This document shows positions 50,238 through 57,030 of a stretch of 64,000 nt of DNA, in pieces; the stretch's first letter is position 1; each line of letters starts with the position of its first letter. This DNA is from an uncultured Bacteroidota bacterium (GTDB taxonomy: Bacteria > Bacteroidota > Bacteroidia > Flavobacteriales_D > Crocinitomicaceae). A program made the position numbers and the translations under genes. The notes beneath the pieces are model-generated. The model worked only from the letters and a program-made list of their open reading frames with translations. It was not told the DNA's origin and searched no databases. Location: positions 463 to 64,462 of the forward strand of contig CALCCB010000083.1 of NCBI GenBank assembly GCA_937899625.1, written 5' to 3'.

Positions 50238-50261
50238 TTCTCATTATCATATAAAAATGAA

Positions 50262-50285
50262 AGCCTGTAAATACAGGCTTTTTTA
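50262..50285 (+). terminator. Rho-independent terminator after gcvP (may also act on the minus strand)
   Basis: agcctgt (50262-50268) / acaggct (50273-50279), followed by a T-run through 50284. Confidence 0.8.
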
Positions 50286-50339: not shown

Positions 50340-50753
50340 TTAGTCGTTCACTTCTTTTTTAATTTTTAATATGAATGGCTCTATTTTTTCTACCAATCTT
50401 TTTTCTACCCATGGTTTTTCAATAAACTCAGTGAGCAAACCTGTTTCAATTAACTCACTGACTACAATGCTATTTGACTGACCAGAAAGCATAAAACAAA
50501 CCAATTCAGGATATTTTGATTTAATCTTTTTTATGAGGGTTGCTCCATTCATTTCAGGCATTTGATAATCAACAATCAAGAACAAAATGTCGACACCATA
50601 ACTCATTAACTCCTGAATGCATCCTTCAACTTCCATTGGATTAGTCAACGTCTCTATCAAAGTGGTAGACGGTGAAAAATACTTTTTTAATTGGTATGAA
50701 AGTACATCAACAATTGTACGATCATCATCAACACAGACAATAGCGTATTTCAT
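50340..50753 (-). CDS. single-domain (CheY-like) response regulator receiver protein
   Basis: 137 aa with VCVDDD, LFLIVDYQMPEMNG (phospho-acceptor Asp), MLSG and EKPW. It has no output domain and starts 2 nt after the kinase stop. Confidence 0.9.
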   Translation of the reverse strand: MKYAIVCVDDDRTIVDVLSYQLKKYFSPSTTLIETLTNPMEVEGCIQELMSYGVDILFLIVDYQMPEMNGATLIKKIKSKYPELVCFMLSGQSNSIVVSELIETGLLTEFIEKPWVEKRLVEKIEPFILKIKKEVND

Positions 50754-50755
50754 AA

Positions 50756-53700
50756 TTATCTAAATGGAAATTTAAATGTAAAAGTAGTTAAATCATCTGT
50801 AGAAATTACCTCAACCGCAGCATGATGTTCATCTAGGATTTCTTTTACAATGTTCAGACCTATTCCAGCACCTGATTTTTCTTTTTTTGTTGAAACAAAA
50901 CGGCTAAAAATATTGGGCAATACATCCTCAGGGATTTTAGGGCCATCATTTGAAATACTAATTTTGGCAAAACCATCTTCTTTGGTTAATCTAATCTGAA
51001 TGATACCTTTATGATCCATTGCGTCTATTCCGTTCTTTATTATATTCGACCATACCTGATATAGTTTCGCTTGAAATGCCATAATGACAATATCATTTTC
51101 GCCTTCATATTCGATCAGCACCCCTCTTTTTATCTCATATTGGAATATTTTAATTACGGTTTGAATTGATTGCTCAAGATTCACTTCCTCCTTAACTATA
51201 CTTTCGTCACCATCTCTTAAATAAAATCTTAAATTTCGGATTACTTCGGCCGCCCTGTTGACTGATAGTAAAATTGAATCATTGAAAGATCTCATTAAAA
51301 GAATTGAATACATTAAGTTAATATAAGGCAATGGATCTTCAATTTGAATGAATTCTTCGAGGTAATCAATATCGCTTATTTCTATTCTGGCATTAATTAG
51401 AGCGTTAATGATTTCATCAGATTTTAATGGTGCATATCGCTGATGATTAGAAATAAAATCATTCCATGTTTTTATTTCTTTTAAACGTTGTATCCCACCG
51501 ACATTAACACTGAAATCACCCTCTCTTTTGTATGCTTTCTTAATTTGATCACTTGAACATTGCAGTAATGATGAAACAAATAACTGTTCAACAGTTGAGT
51601 TAACTTGCTCTGCAGATGCTCTAATCGCCCCAATAGGTGTATTCAATTCATGAGTGATGTTTGCGGTCAACTCTCCTATCATGGCAGCTTTATCCAAATT
51701 GGAGAGCATTATTGTTAATTCCTGATTTTTGGCTGTTTGCTCAGCTATCTTGATTTCAAGGTTTTGATTCATTTTTGAAATGACCTCATTTTGATGATTA
51801 ATTTCATTCAAATAATTCACCGATGAAAACCCATTTCCAATAATTTGAGAAAATAATTCGAGTAACAAGGATTCTTTATCAGAGGGTTTTTTATATTCCT
51901 CAATAAAATCAATACCAACAAAACCTTGACAGACTTTACCTGACATGCAAGGATACGTGTAAAAAGATTTAATATTTATATTTAGGAGCTTGTCTTTATA
52001 CTCTCCATCAGGCAACTCACTGATGTTTTCCACATTGAATGGCTTCCCATCAAGATGCGTTAGTAATCTCTTCTTTGGTAAAACATTCATTGATACAATC
52101 CGAGAATTTTTTTGAACTTCATCATTTAATACCCATTCACTTTCAAGAATCATTTTTTCCTCATCAAAGTCGTAAGAATAAAAATAAGCTCGATCTGCCC
52201 CCATGAACTTGCCTATTTTACTGAGATTAGATCTAACTTTTTTGTTGAAGTCTTTTGGACCTACACCGACGAAGGATGATGCAACTTCTGAAAGTAGTTC
52301 CAAGAAAGATAGCTGAGTTGTTAACTCATTTTGAATGGCCTTTAAAGAAGTGATATCAACTCCATAACCGATGATATATTCCAACTTATTTTTTGTGCCT
52401 ATAATAGGCTCAAATGTTCTTTGAGTAATAATCTTAACCCCTTCTTGACTAATATGCTCATCCTCCCATTGTGCAAATGTTTTTCTCTTTTTTACTTTAT
52501 TAAAATTTTGACGTCTAAGTAATGCCGGAGTATTTGGAATTCCTTTCAGTTGATAATAATCAAAGTCTGTTTTACCGATAATCCAATTTCTGATTTCATC
52601 ATTTTTGATCCCTTTTTGGTTAACATAGATATATTCATGTTGTAAATTAAACACTGCGATATCCAAGGGGAATCCATCCAGAATACTTTCGTAAAAATTT
52701 TTTAATTTATTATTATTTTCTATGAATTCTGTGATTTCAGATGCATAAAGATTCACATAGTTTTTATCTACTATATTGGCAAGATCAATATTGTAAAATC
52801 GAGAGTTTCTCTCTAGTGTTAAGAAAGAATTTTGCCCATTTGATTGCACTAATTCATTAATCGCTGCCAAAAATTCAACGTCATTAATTTTACCCTCAAT
52901 AACAGAAAAATCTTTTAGAAAAGATTCTTGACTCGCTTTATTGAAATAAATGATTTCCTGATTTTCATTCAAACGAAGTATTGGATTCGGATTTTCATTC
53001 GGGAAACGTGCAATCACTTCTATTTCATCTCTAACCAGCTTTAATTCCTTGTTTTTTTGGACAAGATTTTTTTGTATTCTTTTTGAATCCGAGAGAGAGC
53101 TATCAGTTGTTTGCTTGAGAAAAATATATTCAATTATGTAATCGAGAGGAGAAAAATCAGAAATTTGAAGATTATAATTCTCTATTGGAAATTCATTGTT
53201 CAATACAGGCGAGCAAACTAAAAACTTAAAATCGTTTTTTGTAAAAACCGAGACTTTAAATTTGACTTTCAAGTTTTTGCCTAGGATAAATATCAATTTG
53301 TTCTTATAACTTTGAATAAAGTTATTTAGGTCACCGCTTAAAAATCTGTCATCCCAATCAAAATGGTAGTCGAAATGATCGTATAGATTGAGGGTGGGTA
53401 TTATTTTTTTAAAGCCCTCGCTGTATTTTAATAGTTGAAATTGTTCATTAAAAAGCAGAATAAATGGATTCGTTTTCCGCATCGTTTCATATTCTGATAA
53501 TATACTGATCAGATTTCCAGATGACTCAATTTTTAAATCAACTAATGCAGTTGAACTCTTTACTAAAGTAGATATTCCTGTTTTTTCAAACTTGGTTAAT
53601 TCTTGAACAGAATCTGAAAAAATATAAAATGTAAGAACAAATTCATTCCTGGACGAAAGAAGAGAACACTTGATGATAGAATTACATCCCGCTTTACTGA

Positions 53701-53983
53701 ATAATTGAGGTAAGTTTGTCGATGAGATTTCACATTCATCTGCTTTTTTAAAATTGCAATTTTTTAATTCATCGCTAATTTTTTGAGTTCTATTATTCGT
53801 AATAGATGCCAATTCAAAATTAGAAATGATTCTACGATCATTGTTTAATTCAATTTCAATACATGCTGAGAATCCATTGGTTAATTTTGAAGCCATATAG
53901 GCCATATCATCTAGCTCTGACAAAATTTCAGAATCATCAAATAATATGTCTAATGAGTAATCTTGATTATTCACCCAACTCAA
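50756..53983 (-). CDS. cytoplasmic multidomain sensor histidine kinase (N-terminal unknown region, HNOBA-like segment, 2 PAS, GAF, DHp, HATPase_c)
   Basis: 1075 aa with no TM segment seen. PAS-like regions are FPNENPNPILRLNENQEIIYFN and YESILDGFPLDIAVFN.... The GAF-like region is about aa 560-725. The H-box is ELTANITHELNTPIGAI (His778, codon 51650-51652). The N-box is WSNIIKNGIDAM, and the G-boxes are NDGPKI and GAGIGLNIV. Confidence 0.85.
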   Translation of the reverse strand: MSWVNNQDYSLDILFDDSEILSELDDMAYMASKLTNGFSACIEIELNNDRRIISNFELASITNNRTQKISDELKNCNFKKADECEISSTNLPQLFSKAGCNSIIKCSLLSSRNEFVLTFYIFSDSVQELTKFEKTGISTLVKSSTALVDLKIESSGNLISILSEYETMRKTNPFILLFNEQFQLLKYSEGFKKIIPTLNLYDHFDYHFDWDDRFLSGDLNNFIQSYKNKLIFILGKNLKVKFKVSVFTKNDFKFLVCSPVLNNEFPIENYNLQISDFSPLDYIIEYIFLKQTTDSSLSDSKRIQKNLVQKNKELKLVRDEIEVIARFPNENPNPILRLNENQEIIYFNKASQESFLKDFSVIEGKINDVEFLAAINELVQSNGQNSFLTLERNSRFYNIDLANIVDKNYVNLYASEITEFIENNNKLKNFYESILDGFPLDIAVFNLQHEYIYVNQKGIKNDEIRNWIIGKTDFDYYQLKGIPNTPALLRRQNFNKVKKRKTFAQWEDEHISQEGVKIITQRTFEPIIGTKNKLEYIIGYGVDITSLKAIQNELTTQLSFLELLSEVASSFVGVGPKDFNKKVRSNLSKIGKFMGADRAYFYSYDFDEEKMILESEWVLNDEVQKNSRIVSMNVLPKKRLLTHLDGKPFNVENISELPDGEYKDKLLNINIKSFYTYPCMSGKVCQGFVGIDFIEEYKKPSDKESLLLELFSQIIGNGFSSVNYLNEINHQNEVISKMNQNLEIKIAEQTAKNQELTIMLSNLDKAAMIGELTANITHELNTPIGAIRASAEQVNSTVEQLFVSSLLQCSSDQIKKAYKREGDFSVNVGGIQRLKEIKTWNDFISNHQRYAPLKSDEIINALINARIEISDIDYLEEFIQIEDPLPYINLMYSILLMRSFNDSILLSVNRAAEVIRNLRFYLRDGDESIVKEEVNLEQSIQTVIKIFQYEIKRGVLIEYEGENDIVIMAFQAKLYQVWSNIIKNGIDAMDHKGIIQIRLTKEDGFAKISISNDGPKIPEDVLPNIFSRFVSTKKEKSGAGIGLNIVKEILDEHHAAVEVISTDDLTTFTFKFPFR

Positions 53984-54000
53984 AATTCAATCGTTTTAAT

Positions 54001-54543
54001 TTACCACTTGACAAGAAACACATGGCTATCTTCTGGTAAATCACCTCTGTCTATTTCAACCATAGTTGTTTCAATATTGAATCTTTTTCCAAGCCCCCTT
54101 ACTAAACCAAACAACATTGGCGTTAACCCTTTTCTATGTGATGTGTAAATTAGCTCTAATGAATTTTCAGCTTTATTACGAACCTGAAACTTTGGTGCCT
54201 GAAGATGTGGCATAATATTGTTCATTCTGTAATGAAGCATGTCCAAGTTTTCCAAGAAATCAACAAAGTTGCTTCCTGTTATATTCATAAGGTCATTGTA
54301 TCCTTCATCTGCTGTATATAAGATCCAGTATTCACCAAAAGCATCTAAAACTACAGAGGCGTCTGCTTTTAAAACGATTGAGGCATTCTTTACAAGAGTA
54401 TATGTCAATTCATCTGGATATGAATCCATTGCAACAAAATCTCCTTCATCAAAATCACTCAAATCACAGATTACTTCCCATTTATCTTCCCCAAACTTTT
54501 CAGTCACTAAATCTTTGATTGCTTTATTTACTAAACCGTACAT
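54001..54543 (-). CDS. H-NOX (heme nitric oxide/oxygen-binding, HNOB) domain protein
   Basis: 180 aa. The N-terminus is MYGLVNKAIKDLV..FGEDKWE. The proximal His is in FLENLDMLHYRM (His104). The YxSxR motif is in LIYTSHRKGL (Y133, S135, R137). From memory these align with sGC beta1 MYGFVNHAL / FLQNLDALHDHL / HYYSEREGL. Confidence 0.85.
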   Translation of the reverse strand: MYGLVNKAIKDLVTEKFGEDKWEVICDLSDFDEGDFVAMDSYPDELTYTLVKNASIVLKADASVVLDAFGEYWILYTADEGYNDLMNITGSNFVDFLENLDMLHYRMNNIMPHLQAPKFQVRNKAENSLELIYTSHRKGLTPMLFGLVRGLGKRFNIETTMVEIDRGDLPEDSHVFLVKW

Positions 54544-55578: not shown

Positions 55579-57030
55579 ATGAATAATTTATTCAGCCTGT
55601 TTCTTTTTATGCCAACTCATTTGCTCTTAGCACAAAGTCCAACTGTCTTCTGGGAACCGGAAATTCCAGTTTCTGATGGGTCAATATATGGAAACATAAG
55701 ACCTAGAATTGTTGTTGCCGCCGATAATGTGCCAATGGTCGTGTATGGCAAAGCAGGAGGTGCACTGAATGCATCCCGATGGAACGGAACCGGATTCGAT
55801 ACTCCGGTTTCCCTGTTACCAGCAAACATGAGCTCTTATCTTGCGTCATGGACGGGTCCAGATGCTGCTTCAAAAGGAGATACAGTGGTTATCGTTTTCA
55901 AAGCGCAACCCATTGAAGTAGGGAATGTTTATTCTGTTCGATCATTTGATGGCGGGATCACTTTTTCAGACACGATAAGAGTAGATGATCACAATCTGGG
56001 GGTTGCCTGGTTACCTTCACTTGATATGGATGAGAATGGTAATCCAAGTGTGATATACATGGCACACGATCCGGTTTGGGTACATCCTCGCTATGTAGTC
56101 ACCCATTCGACAGATCAGGGTGCAACCTATCAAGGCGAAATGGAGATCGCGTTATCTATTCCTGATGAAGCTTGCGATTGCTGTCCAGCTGAATATGTAA
56201 TCAATGGAAACCAGCACGCACTGTTGTATCGAAACAATGAATCAAATATCCGAGACATCTATGCAGTTTATTCTACCGATGACGGAATGACTTATCCTTC
56301 TTTTGAAAATATAGATCAGCTGTCCTGGGCAGTGACTTCTTGTCCTTCGACCGGGCCTCATGGGATCTTCTCCAATGATAAGCTGATCAGCGTTTATGCA
56401 AGCAGAGCAGGTGGAACATACCGTACCTATATATCAGAAACGGATGCTACAACTGGATTGTCGTACGTTTCAACGACCATGATGACACCTCCTGCAAGTG
56501 GAGCCGGAAGTCAGAATTACCCAAGAATAGCCGGACAAGGAGATACGCTATTTGTCGCGTGGCAAGAAGCTGAAACTTCCAACAATGAGATCATGTTTGC
56601 CTGGACGACGACAGGAAGTATCAGTGAATTATTGTCTTCCAAGCAAATGGTAAATACGACCACGACCAGTGCTCAAACGAATCCTGACATTGCCTACAAG
56701 GATGGCTTTATTCATTTGGTATACCAAGATGCATCTGCGGGAGACGTGATCTATCGAAGAGGGATTCTGGGAACTTTATCTGTTGAAGATGAGATGTTAA
56801 GTTCCGTTCAAATTTCTCCCAACCCGAGCGTGAACAGTAAATTCTTCCTTAACGCCAGCGACTATTCTTCTATCGAATTGATAGACATCCAGGGAAATAT
56901 AGTACCTGTAAACATCATTCACCACTCATCCCAAACAGAGATCGATCTGGGGACAAATTACGGTACATTTATTCTAAAAGTCTCCAATGAGAAGGGAGAC
57001 CAAACGATCAGAATTCAAAATTCAAAATAA
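55579..57030 (+). CDS. BNR/Asp-box repeat protein with a T9SS type-A C-terminal sorting domain
   Basis: 483 aa. The Asp-boxes are SFDGGITFS, STDQGATYQ and STDDGMTYP. The C-terminus VQISPNPSVNSKFFLN...GTFILKVSNEKGDQTIRIQ is typical of type-A (Por) CTDs. Confidence 0.75.
   Translation: MNNLFSLFLFMPTHLLLAQSPTVFWEPEIPVSDGSIYGNIRPRIVVAADNVPMVVYGKAGGALNASRWNGTGFDTPVSLLPANMSSYLASWTGPDAASKGDTVVIVFKAQPIEVGNVYSVRSFDGGITFSDTIRVDDHNLGVAWLPSLDMDENGNPSVIYMAHDPVWVHPRYVVTHSTDQGATYQGEMEIALSIPDEACDCCPAEYVINGNQHALLYRNNESNIRDIYAVYSTDDGMTYPSFENIDQLSWAVTSCPSTGPHGIFSNDKLISVYASRAGGTYRTYISETDATTGLSYVSTTMMTPPASGAGSQNYPRIAGQGDTLFVAWQEAETSNNEIMFAWTTTGSISELLSSKQMVNTTTTSAQTNPDIAYKDGFIHLVYQDASAGDVIYRRGILGTLSVEDEMLSSVQISPNPSVNSKFFLNASDYSSIELIDIQGNIVPVNIIHHSSQTEIDLGTNYGTFILKVSNEKGDQTIRIQNSK

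Follow-up and report, generated by a model that had tools for sequence, protein, structure and literature searches.

The window, a stretch of 64,000 nucleotides of Bacteroidota DNA, contained a three-gene operon on its minus strand, encoding a stand-alone H-NOX protein, a sensor histidine kinase and a receiver-only response regulator (Table 1), with a gap of 17 nt between the H-NOX stop codon and the kinase start and of 2 nt between the kinase stop codon and the receiver start. A scan for sigma-70 promoters was uninformative, returning 19 sites where 23.8 were expected. The kinase belongs to the two-component sensor histidine kinases, having a HisKA domain with the phospho-acceptor His778, a HATPase_c domain and a receiver gene immediately downstream, and its domains follow the order GAF-like, H-NOXA, signalling helix, PAS, PAS, GAF-like, HisKA, insertion and HATPase_c. 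The top NCBIfam match of the receiver was NF053512 (the receiver domain in a family of NO-linked regulators; E=1.7e-16), at a score far below the cutoff of that family.

Table 1. Features of the operon and of the kinase encoded by it. Residue numbers refer to the kinase, in which residue n starts at position 53983-3(n-1) of the window.
Feature	Position	Strand	Evidence or remark
Stand-alone H-NOX gene, predicted haem NO sensor, 180 aa, operon gene 1	54001..54543	-	PF07700, E=1.4e-45
Sensor histidine kinase, 1075 aa, TTG start	50756..53983	-	ORF and Pfam
Predicted degenerate GAF-like domain, N-terminal, residues ~10-155	53519..53956	-	hhalign and AF2/Foldseek
H-NOXA/HNOBA PAS domain (N-cap helix and PAS core), residues ~152-282	53138..53530	-	PF07701, E=5.2e-5
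Signalling helix/coiled coil continuing H-NOXA, residues ~283-330, starting at hinge motif SDFSPLDYIIEYIFLKQ	52994..53137	-	AF2 models and profile alignment
PAS domain with RFPNENPNPILR N-cap, residues 331-440	52664..52993	-	PAS_4, 22.8 bits (cutoff 23.1), E=1e-4
Second PAS domain, residues 447-545	52349..52645	-	PAS_9, E=0.014, profile positions 9-102 of 103
GAF-like domain ahead of kinase core, residues 587-716	51836..52225	-	GAF PF01590, E=0.036, profile positions 10-130 of 133
HisKA H-box, phospho-acceptor His778 (ITHELNTP)	51596..51676	-	PF00512, E=6.6e-5
Stretch of ~160 aa from H-box helix to ATPase domain	51104..51586	-	Matches no Pfam family
HATPase_c catalytic domain, residues 972-1074	50762..51070	-	PF02518, E=2e-20
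Receiver-only response regulator, 137 aa, final operon gene	50340..50753	-	PF00072, E=4.3e-14
Terminator-like hairpin at operon end	50260..50281	-	Bidirectional, common to convergent gcvP-like gene

The first gene of the operon encodes a canonical H-NOX, closest to the Nostoc/sGC beta1 type (sGC, soluble guanylate cyclase). The match to PF07700 covered profile positions 1-161 of 163, and the closest solved relatives were Nostoc Alr2278 (E=3e-45) and then sGC beta1 (E ~1e-26), with proteobacterial types at E 1e-7 to 1e-5 and Thermoanaerobacter types likewise far. His104 aligned with the proximal His105 of Alr2278, and the haem-propionate motif Y-x-S-x-R was present as YTSHR, aligned with YQSTR of Alr2278.

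The original prediction placed a domain resembling the H-NOXA (HNOBA) domain of animal sGC at positions 53491-53024 of the minus strand, corresponding to kinase residues 165-320. The quoted motifs were found there, TNPFILLFNEQFQLLKYSEGFKKIIPTL being followed by FKFLVCSPVLNNEFPIENYNLQISDFSPLDYIIEYIFLKQTTDSSLSDSKRIQKNLVQKNKELKLVRDEIE, and the sGC beta1 landmarks with which they had been compared proved essentially correct when aligned to PDB chain 6jt0_B. The outcome of the proposed PF07701 profile check depended on what was searched. For the window protein alone the profile fell short, the isolated segment reaching 23.3 bits (E=5.2e-5) against a gathering score of 23.4 and the full-length kinase 15.4 bits (E=0.013), although PF07701 was the only Pfam family that the segment matched. 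Close relatives fell on either side of the cutoff (17-31.6 bits). At the level of the family the similarity held: 44 of the 48 aligned members matched PF07701 (best E=5.8e-36), and a profile of the family searched against the PDB matched eight chains, all of which contain H-NOXA (E 1e-24 to 2e-11), and nothing besides these. These comprised 2p04/2p08 from Nostoc NpSTHK (1e-24), sGC beta1/alpha1 (1e-17 to 1e-13) and 4gj4, which together with the sGC chains spanned 1e-17 to 2e-11. The anticipated alignment to sGC alpha1/beta1 H-NOXA was thereby obtained with the profile, pairwise identity to solved H-NOXA domains being only ~15% (16/109 for NpSTHK and 22/146 for human beta1). The profile alignment reached into the coiled coil of sGC beta1, to residue 392, and a sub-alignment restricted to Bacteroidota still placed 2p08/2p04 first in the PDB (E=0.017).

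Searching 1.84 billion proteins with the segment, phmmer gave 195 matches at E<=1e-3, and a continuous chain of homologues links the window protein to canonical HNOBA proteins. A word-indexed homologue search with the profile (A1) recovered 13 proteins only, all cyanobacterial or animal-type HNOBA with a precomputed PF07701 call, and zero Bacteroidota relatives, and the word-indexed search with kinase residues 1-400 gave no match. No relative was obtained when genome contigs were scanned with the single sequence; the pattern search of genome contigs was built on a closer alignment (A2), as A1 was too diverse for pattern design.

The AF2 model of the segment (pLDDT 90.2, pTM 0.75) comprised a PAS core and a 44-residue helix, which was continuous over residues 134-177 of the segment model and over residues 282-330 in a model of kinase residues 1-345. 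Foldseek ranks 1-22 were occupied exclusively by PAS chains of sGC, NpSTHK or Manduca, with generic PAS domains first appearing at E>=3e-3, and superposition on 2p04/2p08 gave a target-normalised TM-score of 0.74-0.78 and an rmsd of 1.9-3.2 Å. The predicted structure is thus a PAS fold nearest to H-NOXA domains and running straight into a signalling helix, in agreement with the sGC H-NOXA fold and long helix that had been proposed, with the proviso that the model may be drawn to the HNOBA fold because its alignment includes clear HNOBA members.

A generic PAS domain, similar to sGC H-NOXA by convergence or chance, could also produce a pairwise identity this low and a Pfam score under the gathering threshold, and phmmer with the N-terminal 340 residues of the kinase found nothing relevant among PDB sequences, its one match being a chance match to Myc. 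This explanation is effectively refuted by the fact that the segment matched no other PAS family, that the family profile selected H-NOXA chains in 8/8 cases and no other PDB PAS chain, that all 22 of the best structural neighbours were H-NOXA chains, and that the chain of homologues to canonical HNOBA is unbroken and the linkage to H-NOX strict. Chance similarity was ruled out on the family-profile matches in the PDB, PF07701 as the sole Pfam match and the Foldseek ranking, and the likeness to sGC H-NOXA exceeds chance despite the ~15% pairwise identity.

Upstream of H-NOXA, a GAF-like fold is suggested for the kinase N-terminus by profile-profile comparison and a structure model. This region gave no match in Pfam, and HMM and phmmer searches did not link it to the GAF domain of relatives, whereas hhalign aligned it collinearly with their N-terminal GAF (probability 76%, E=2e-5). 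When residues 1-345 were modelled with AF2 (pLDDT 80), the top Foldseek match was the GAF-PAS structure of E. coli DhaR(N), and phytochrome and PDE2A GAF chains were also listed; the arrangement of domains within this model is undefined because its pTM was only 0.53. Downstream of the signalling helix, the RFPNENPNPILR N-cap motif of the first PAS domain is kept in relatives, which have clear PAS domains at the position of residues 447-545 and a significant GAF at the position of residues 587-716. The spacing between H-box and ATPase domain is also the same in relatives, for example in locus L015 (HisKA 780-803, HATPase_c 981-1083). The precomputed Pfam calls for the kinase consist of HATPase_c alone, and standard annotation therefore misses H-NOXA.

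The gene order of the window recurred across genomes. In all 65 testable Bacteroidota species-representative genomes, a set picked by the H-NOXA domain, H-NOX lay directly upstream on the same strand (65/65), and in the reciprocal set of metagenome loci, picked by H-NOX, the next gene carried an H-NOXA domain at every testable locus (72/72). As all of these loci come from a single clade of Bacteroidota, both counts mostly reflect inheritance and not independent events. A receiver gene followed the kinase immediately at 56 of 66 related loci. Kinase length varied from 509 to 1666 aa across loci and the N-terminal GAF was present, short or absent, while H-NOXA was constant. Fused bacterial H-NOX/H-NOXA proteins were also considered, and no H-NOX occurred within the 150 best family representatives. 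With an H-NOX of Nostoc/sGC type and linkage complete in both sets, the claim that the locus divides the sGC sensor logic between two polypeptides and has a kinase for its output is supported.

The operon shares features with three known systems. In the proteobacterial H-NOX/HnoK (HqsK) systems of Shewanella and Vibrio a stand-alone H-NOX gene also lies beside a histidine kinase gene, with phosphotransfer to response regulators. The H-NOX proteins of these systems are distant from that of the window (1e-7 to 1e-5, against 1e-45 for Nostoc), and the HnoK-type kinases under their control lack H-NOXA, indicating that H-NOXA is not needed for coupling between H-NOX and kinase in general.

In animal sGC alpha1/beta1 (PDB 6JT0-2, 6PAS/6PAT, 8HBH), H-NOX, PAS/H-NOXA and coiled coil occur in the same order as in the window, and the landmarks PF(H), CSP and L-x-x-SD-x-x-x-D running into the helix are common to both. 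Chains of sGC were the top structural neighbours of the window model, aligned over PAS and coiled coil. Unlike in sGC, H-NOX is a separate polypeptide in the window, additional PAS and GAF domains lie between helix and output, and the kinase is presumably a homodimer in place of the alpha/beta heterodimer. No cyclase family matched the kinase, which ends in HisKA and HATPase_c; it resembles the sensor half of sGC, yet it is not an sGC.

A stand-alone sGC-like H-NOX and an H-NOXA-bearing kinase are likewise represented in Nostoc by Alr2278 (Nostoc sp., PDB 2O09) and NpSTHK (Nostoc punctiforme, PDB 2P04/2P08), an arrangement for which background is available (PMC2576301, PMC2828450, PMC8196705), and in cyanobacteria the stand-alone sGC-like H-NOX is encoded within a histidine-kinase operon (PMC2576301). 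The split design is therefore not new, being already established in Nostoc (PDB 2P04/2P08; PMC2576301, PMC8196705), and the window locus is a new and poorly annotated Bacteroidota member. It differs from NpSTHK in phylum (Bacteroidota, not Cyanobacteria), in the much greater divergence of its H-NOXA (~15% identity and a Pfam score below threshold), in the predicted degenerate GAF-like domain preceding H-NOXA, where the crystallised NpSTHK domain begins near residue 1, in having Leu where the hinge motif (HD) has its conserved His, and in its output through a separate receiver-only protein.

Domain identity, predicted fold, gene order and strict linkage, as observed in this analysis, lead to the reading that kinase residues ~152-330 form a divergent yet genuine H-NOXA domain continuing into a signalling helix, and that the operon corresponds in Bacteroidota to the H-NOX/STHK pair of cyanobacteria, with H-NOX presumably acting in trans; we put the probability of this reading at roughly 80%. 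The H-NOXA/helix module of the kinase is the one that connects H-NOX to the cyclase domain in animal sGC and that forms the N-terminus of NpSTHK. Where H-NOX contacts this module, whether it activates or inhibits, and what output follows are the parts of the reading that we infer. NO would bind the ferrous haem of H-NOX, which would associate in trans with the H-NOXA/helix dimer of the kinase; an NO-dependent change could then travel down the signalling helix and, by way of the two PAS domains and the GAF-like domain, reach the DHp helix, altering autophosphorylation of His778 and, in turn, phosphorylation of the single-domain receiver. In cryo-EM structures of sGC, the beta H-NOX is packed on both PAS and coiled coil, and the helices straighten as it moves (PMC6839917, PMC8196705).

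The H-NOXA of the kinase may also be genuine and serve for dimerisation and transmission only, with H-NOX docking elsewhere, either on the DHp/catalytic core or on the N-terminal GAF-like domain. Docking on the DHp/catalytic core has been proposed for the proteobacterial HnoK-type kinases, and the existence of such H-NOX-regulated kinases lacking H-NOXA fits this explanation, as does the undefined domain arrangement of the 1-345 model. The PAS domains of sGC, moreover, have been described chiefly as serving parallel dimerisation, with little change when the enzyme is activated (PMC8196705). It is H-NOXA, however, that is constant beside H-NOX while the N-terminal GAF comes and goes, the sGC-like H-NOX subtype goes with H-NOXA-bearing partners, and the beta H-NOX of sGC touches both PAS and coiled coil (PMC6839917). 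Docking elsewhere is thus a serious but minority possibility.

It is rather unlikely, on the other hand, that the cassette goes so far as to be a true two-polypeptide sGC sensor, in which H-NOX would dock in trans, with the geometry seen in sGC, on the module of H-NOXA and signalling helix, while the cis GAF-like domain, occupying the sequence position that H-NOX has in sGC, would supply a second input. This would let the kinase combine NO with a further signal, and the locus would offer a small, soluble and genetically separable system for studying signal transfer from H-NOX to PAS and coiled coil.

The H-NOXA PAS domain could itself sense a small molecule, which the kinase would integrate with a GAF ligand independently of H-NOX, leaving H-NOX to act on another target or as an NO buffer. 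Many PAS domains bind ligands, the kinase has five further sensor-type domains, and a possible cavity has been noted in the PAS domain of Manduca sGC (PMC3901396). This explanation is improbable, as H-NOXA domains are without any known ligand (PMC8196705), and the tight operon, with its gaps of 17 and 2 nt, and the complete linkage argue for H-NOX and kinase acting in a common pathway.

The pairing of sGC-type H-NOX with an H-NOXA/helix module extends beyond cyanobacteria and animals, being strictly conserved as a cassette across many Bacteroidota. The route of the NO signal from H-NOX to its effector is still argued, and structures of bacterial H-NOX bound to partners are missing according to reviews (PMC8196705). 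The value of the cassette is practical, in better annotation of such kinases and in diverse natural H-NOX/H-NOXA pairs for coevolution analysis or biochemistry, and does not lie in a new principle. The cassette is widespread in freshwater and estuarine Bacteroidota.

The putative sensor lies in a compact operon on the minus strand of the window, which runs from an H-NOX gene through a histidine kinase to a response regulator. The gene upstream of the kinase encodes a canonical H-NOX (PF07700, E=1.4e-45). Its closest solved relatives are Nostoc Alr2278 (E=3e-45) and next the H-NOX domain of soluble guanylate cyclase (sGC) beta1 (~1e-26), with Proteobacterial and Thermoanaerobacter H-NOX proteins reaching only 1e-7 to 1e-5. 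Its His104 pairs with the proximal His105 and its YTSHR with the Y-x-S-x-R motif. The response regulator itself has no output domain, and its best NCBIfam match is the receiver domain of NF053512 (E=1.7e-16, 60 bits vs a cutoff of 400), an NO-linked c-di-GMP phosphodiesterase regulator family. The kinase start (53975-53983) differs between gene callers, giving 1075 or 1072 aa.

Features of the H-NOX/kinase operon and its surroundings (window coordinates)
Feature	Position	Strand	Details
H-NOX gene	54001-54543	minus	180 aa
Sensor histidine kinase	50756-53983	minus	1075 aa; TTG start, 17 nt past H-NOX stop codon
H-NOXA-like segment	53024-53491	minus	within kinase
Hinge motif	53138-53155	minus	kinase residues ~277-282
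Segment between H-box helix and HATPase_c	51104-51586	minus	kinase residues ~800-960
Receiver-only response regulator	50340-50753	minus	137 aa; start 2 nt past kinase stop codon
Bidirectional terminator-like hairpin	50260-50281 (or 50259-50282)		between convergent gcvP-like gene (end 50237) and response regulator (end 50340)
ORF	55579-57030		483 aa

The original prediction had likened part of the kinase to the H-NOXA (HNOBA) domain of sGC. Kinase residue n begins at 53983-3(n-1), so the segment is exactly residues 165-320; all of the strings quoted from it are found there, and the sGC beta1 strings given for comparison match the human beta1 chain in the PDB profile alignment. Taken as a single sequence, the segment is in the twilight zone: phmmer with kinase residues 1-340 gave no relevant match among all PDB sequences, and identity in the profile-guided alignment is 16/109 to the Nostoc punctiforme histidine kinase NpSTHK and 22/146 to human beta1. 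The HNOBA profile PF07701 scores 15.4 bits (E=0.013, Pfam) on the full-length kinase and is the sole Pfam match of isolated residues 150-345 (23.3 bits), where it is significant (E=5.2e-5) but remains 0.1 bit below the gathering score.

The decisive sequence evidence for the predicted H-NOXA identity comes from the family. phmmer, run exhaustively against 1.84 billion representative proteins, recovered 195 homologues at E<=1e-3, ranging from a 71%-identical orthologue (P0001), through kinases with GAF plus this domain (30-40% identical), to canonical FPFH...CSPW...DFxxHD proteins. PF07701 matches 44/48 members of an alignment of these relatives (A1; best 5.8e-36). The A1 profile matched exactly eight distinct PDB sequences, every one containing H-NOXA: NpSTHK (2p04/2p08, ~1e-24), sGC beta1 (6jt0_B, 6pas_B and 9oxn_B, ~1e-17), sGC alpha1 (5e-15, 2e-13) and 4gj4, the Manduca alpha PAS domain (2e-11). 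PAS proteins other than these gave no match in the PDB. A profile from the 14 closest Bacteroidota sequences alone also ranks 2p08/2p04 first, weakly (E=0.017). The hinge-motif His is replaced by Leu in the kinase and P0001 (SDFSPLDY); the family has DFxxHDY as its consensus, and the sGC beta1 sequence is SDIPLHD.

AlphaFold2 modelling on A1 (pLDDT 90.2, pTM 0.75) predicted an N-cap helix and a PAS core of five strands, then a helix of 44 residues (kinase residues 283-326); this is the sGC H-NOXA PAS fold followed by a long helix. In the Foldseek search of the PDB, ranks 1-22 were occupied by sGC alpha/beta chains, NpSTHK 2p04/2p08 and Manduca 4gj4 (E=2e-6 to 2e-4), generic PAS domains (phytochromes, PpsR, Cycle, EcDOS) appearing only from E>=3e-3; the target-normalised TM-score against 2p04/2p08 was 0.74-0.78 (rmsd 1.9-3.2 A). 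The model depends partly on the sequence evidence, because clear HNOBA proteins are present in A1. The resemblance itself was confirmed and its interpretation supported.

Kinase residues 10-155 have no Pfam match, and are collinear with the N-terminal GAF of relatives (76% probability and E=2e-5 in hhalign). Residues 1-345, when modelled (pLDDT 80.4, pTM 0.53), gave E. coli DhaR(N) GAF-PAS as the best Foldseek match, followed by sGC chains, 2p08, phytochromes and PDE2A GAF. The helix is followed by a PAS domain whose RFPNENPNPILR cap is conserved (PAS_4, 22.8 vs 23.1 bits), a second PAS domain (PAS_9, E=0.014), a GAF-like domain covering nearly the whole profile (E=0.036) and the kinase core, consisting of an H-box with His778, ~160 residues that match no Pfam family, and HATPase_c. 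This long spacing is kept in relatives, such as locus L015 (HisKA 780-803, HATPase_c 981-1083). All sensor domains of the kinase score below curated Pfam thresholds, which explains the precomputed annotation in public metagenomes, where HATPase_c is the only domain listed for the identical gene.

A scan for the conserved motif DYI[ASI]E[YF][LI]FL in one genome per GTDB species found 72 loci, Bacteroidota throughout and for the most part MAGs of freshwater Crocinitomicaceae, Lishizhenia and Flavobacteriales. In 65 loci the gene directly upstream on the same strand encodes an H-NOX (47-69% identity to that of the window); the remaining 7 have the match at the end of a contig, which makes the score 65/65 among testable loci. 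In the reverse test, 80 metagenome loci were picked by H-NOX similarity, and the A1 profile found H-NOXA in the gene after H-NOX in all 72 with enough downstream DNA, although 65/65 and 72/72 were both obtained within a single clade and do not count independent events. These counts show that H-NOX, H-NOXA and the helix are the conserved core of the cassette. Around this core, kinase length varies from 509 to 1666 aa, and the distance from the H-NOX stop codon to the start of H-NOXA is 18-50, 170-343 or 435-533 nt in kinases that lack an N-terminal domain, have a short one or have a ~170-aa GAF, respectively. A receiver gene comes next in 56/66 loci in which the 3' end of the kinase is complete; several loci, including L033, L043 and L065, carry a tandem pair. 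The titles of several MAG records with this cassette of Bacteroidota type read 'uncultured Akkermansia sp.', 'Chitinophaga pinensis' or 'Chryseobacterium gleum' (L015, L018, L011, L025 and others), labels that look like mis-binning or placeholder taxonomy.

HNOBA/H-NOXA was defined as a domain that bacterial signalling proteins have in common with the sGC of animals (Iyer et al. 2003, as cited in PMC8196705), and its crystal structure is from NpSTHK (2P04/2P08; Ma et al. 2008, as cited in PMC2828450 and PMC2576301). According to PMC2576301, the Nostoc H-NOX belongs to a histidine-kinase operon. With this precedent, and with Bacteroidota relatives above the Pfam threshold (L015, 31.6 bits; L007, 27.5 bits), the architecture was already known. 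New here are the divergence, the GAF-like domain in front, and the wide and strictly linked Bacteroidota distribution, missed by annotation. Lacking a cyclase domain, the kinase is not itself an sGC.

The components established here are an sGC/Nostoc-type H-NOX, a genuine H-NOXA PAS domain that runs on into a signalling helix, a complete kinase core and a cognate receiver, together with their operon and strict linkage. As the H-NOX is nearest to Alr2278 and sGC beta1, both halves are of sGC/cyanobacterial type. This and the linkage support the proposal that sGC sensor logic is split over two polypeptides with a kinase output. By analogy, the separately encoded H-NOX would dock in trans on the H-NOXA/helix dimer, a shift in helix register would follow from NO binding, and this change would pass through the PAS-PAS-GAF array to alter autophosphorylation of His778. 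The main rival is that H-NOXA merely dimerises and transmits, H-NOX docking elsewhere; in its favour, H-NOX regulates the HnoK-type kinases of Proteobacteria, which lack an H-NOXA domain.

The three-gene operon (50340-54543) is markedly AT-rich (GC 31-35%, GC3 26-30%), most flanking genes having a GC of 40-42%; this may stem from horizontal acquisition or from relaxed, fast evolution. Contigs of at least 43 collection blocks carry identical H-NOX proteins flanked by the same set of genes: YbjQ, a 473/483-aa protein without assignment, a cupin and DinB. The 483-aa ORF has no precomputed Pfam match; judged by eye from its sequence, it ends in what looks like a type IX secretion sorting domain of Bacteroidota, which, if correct, fits a Bacteroidota origin of the window.
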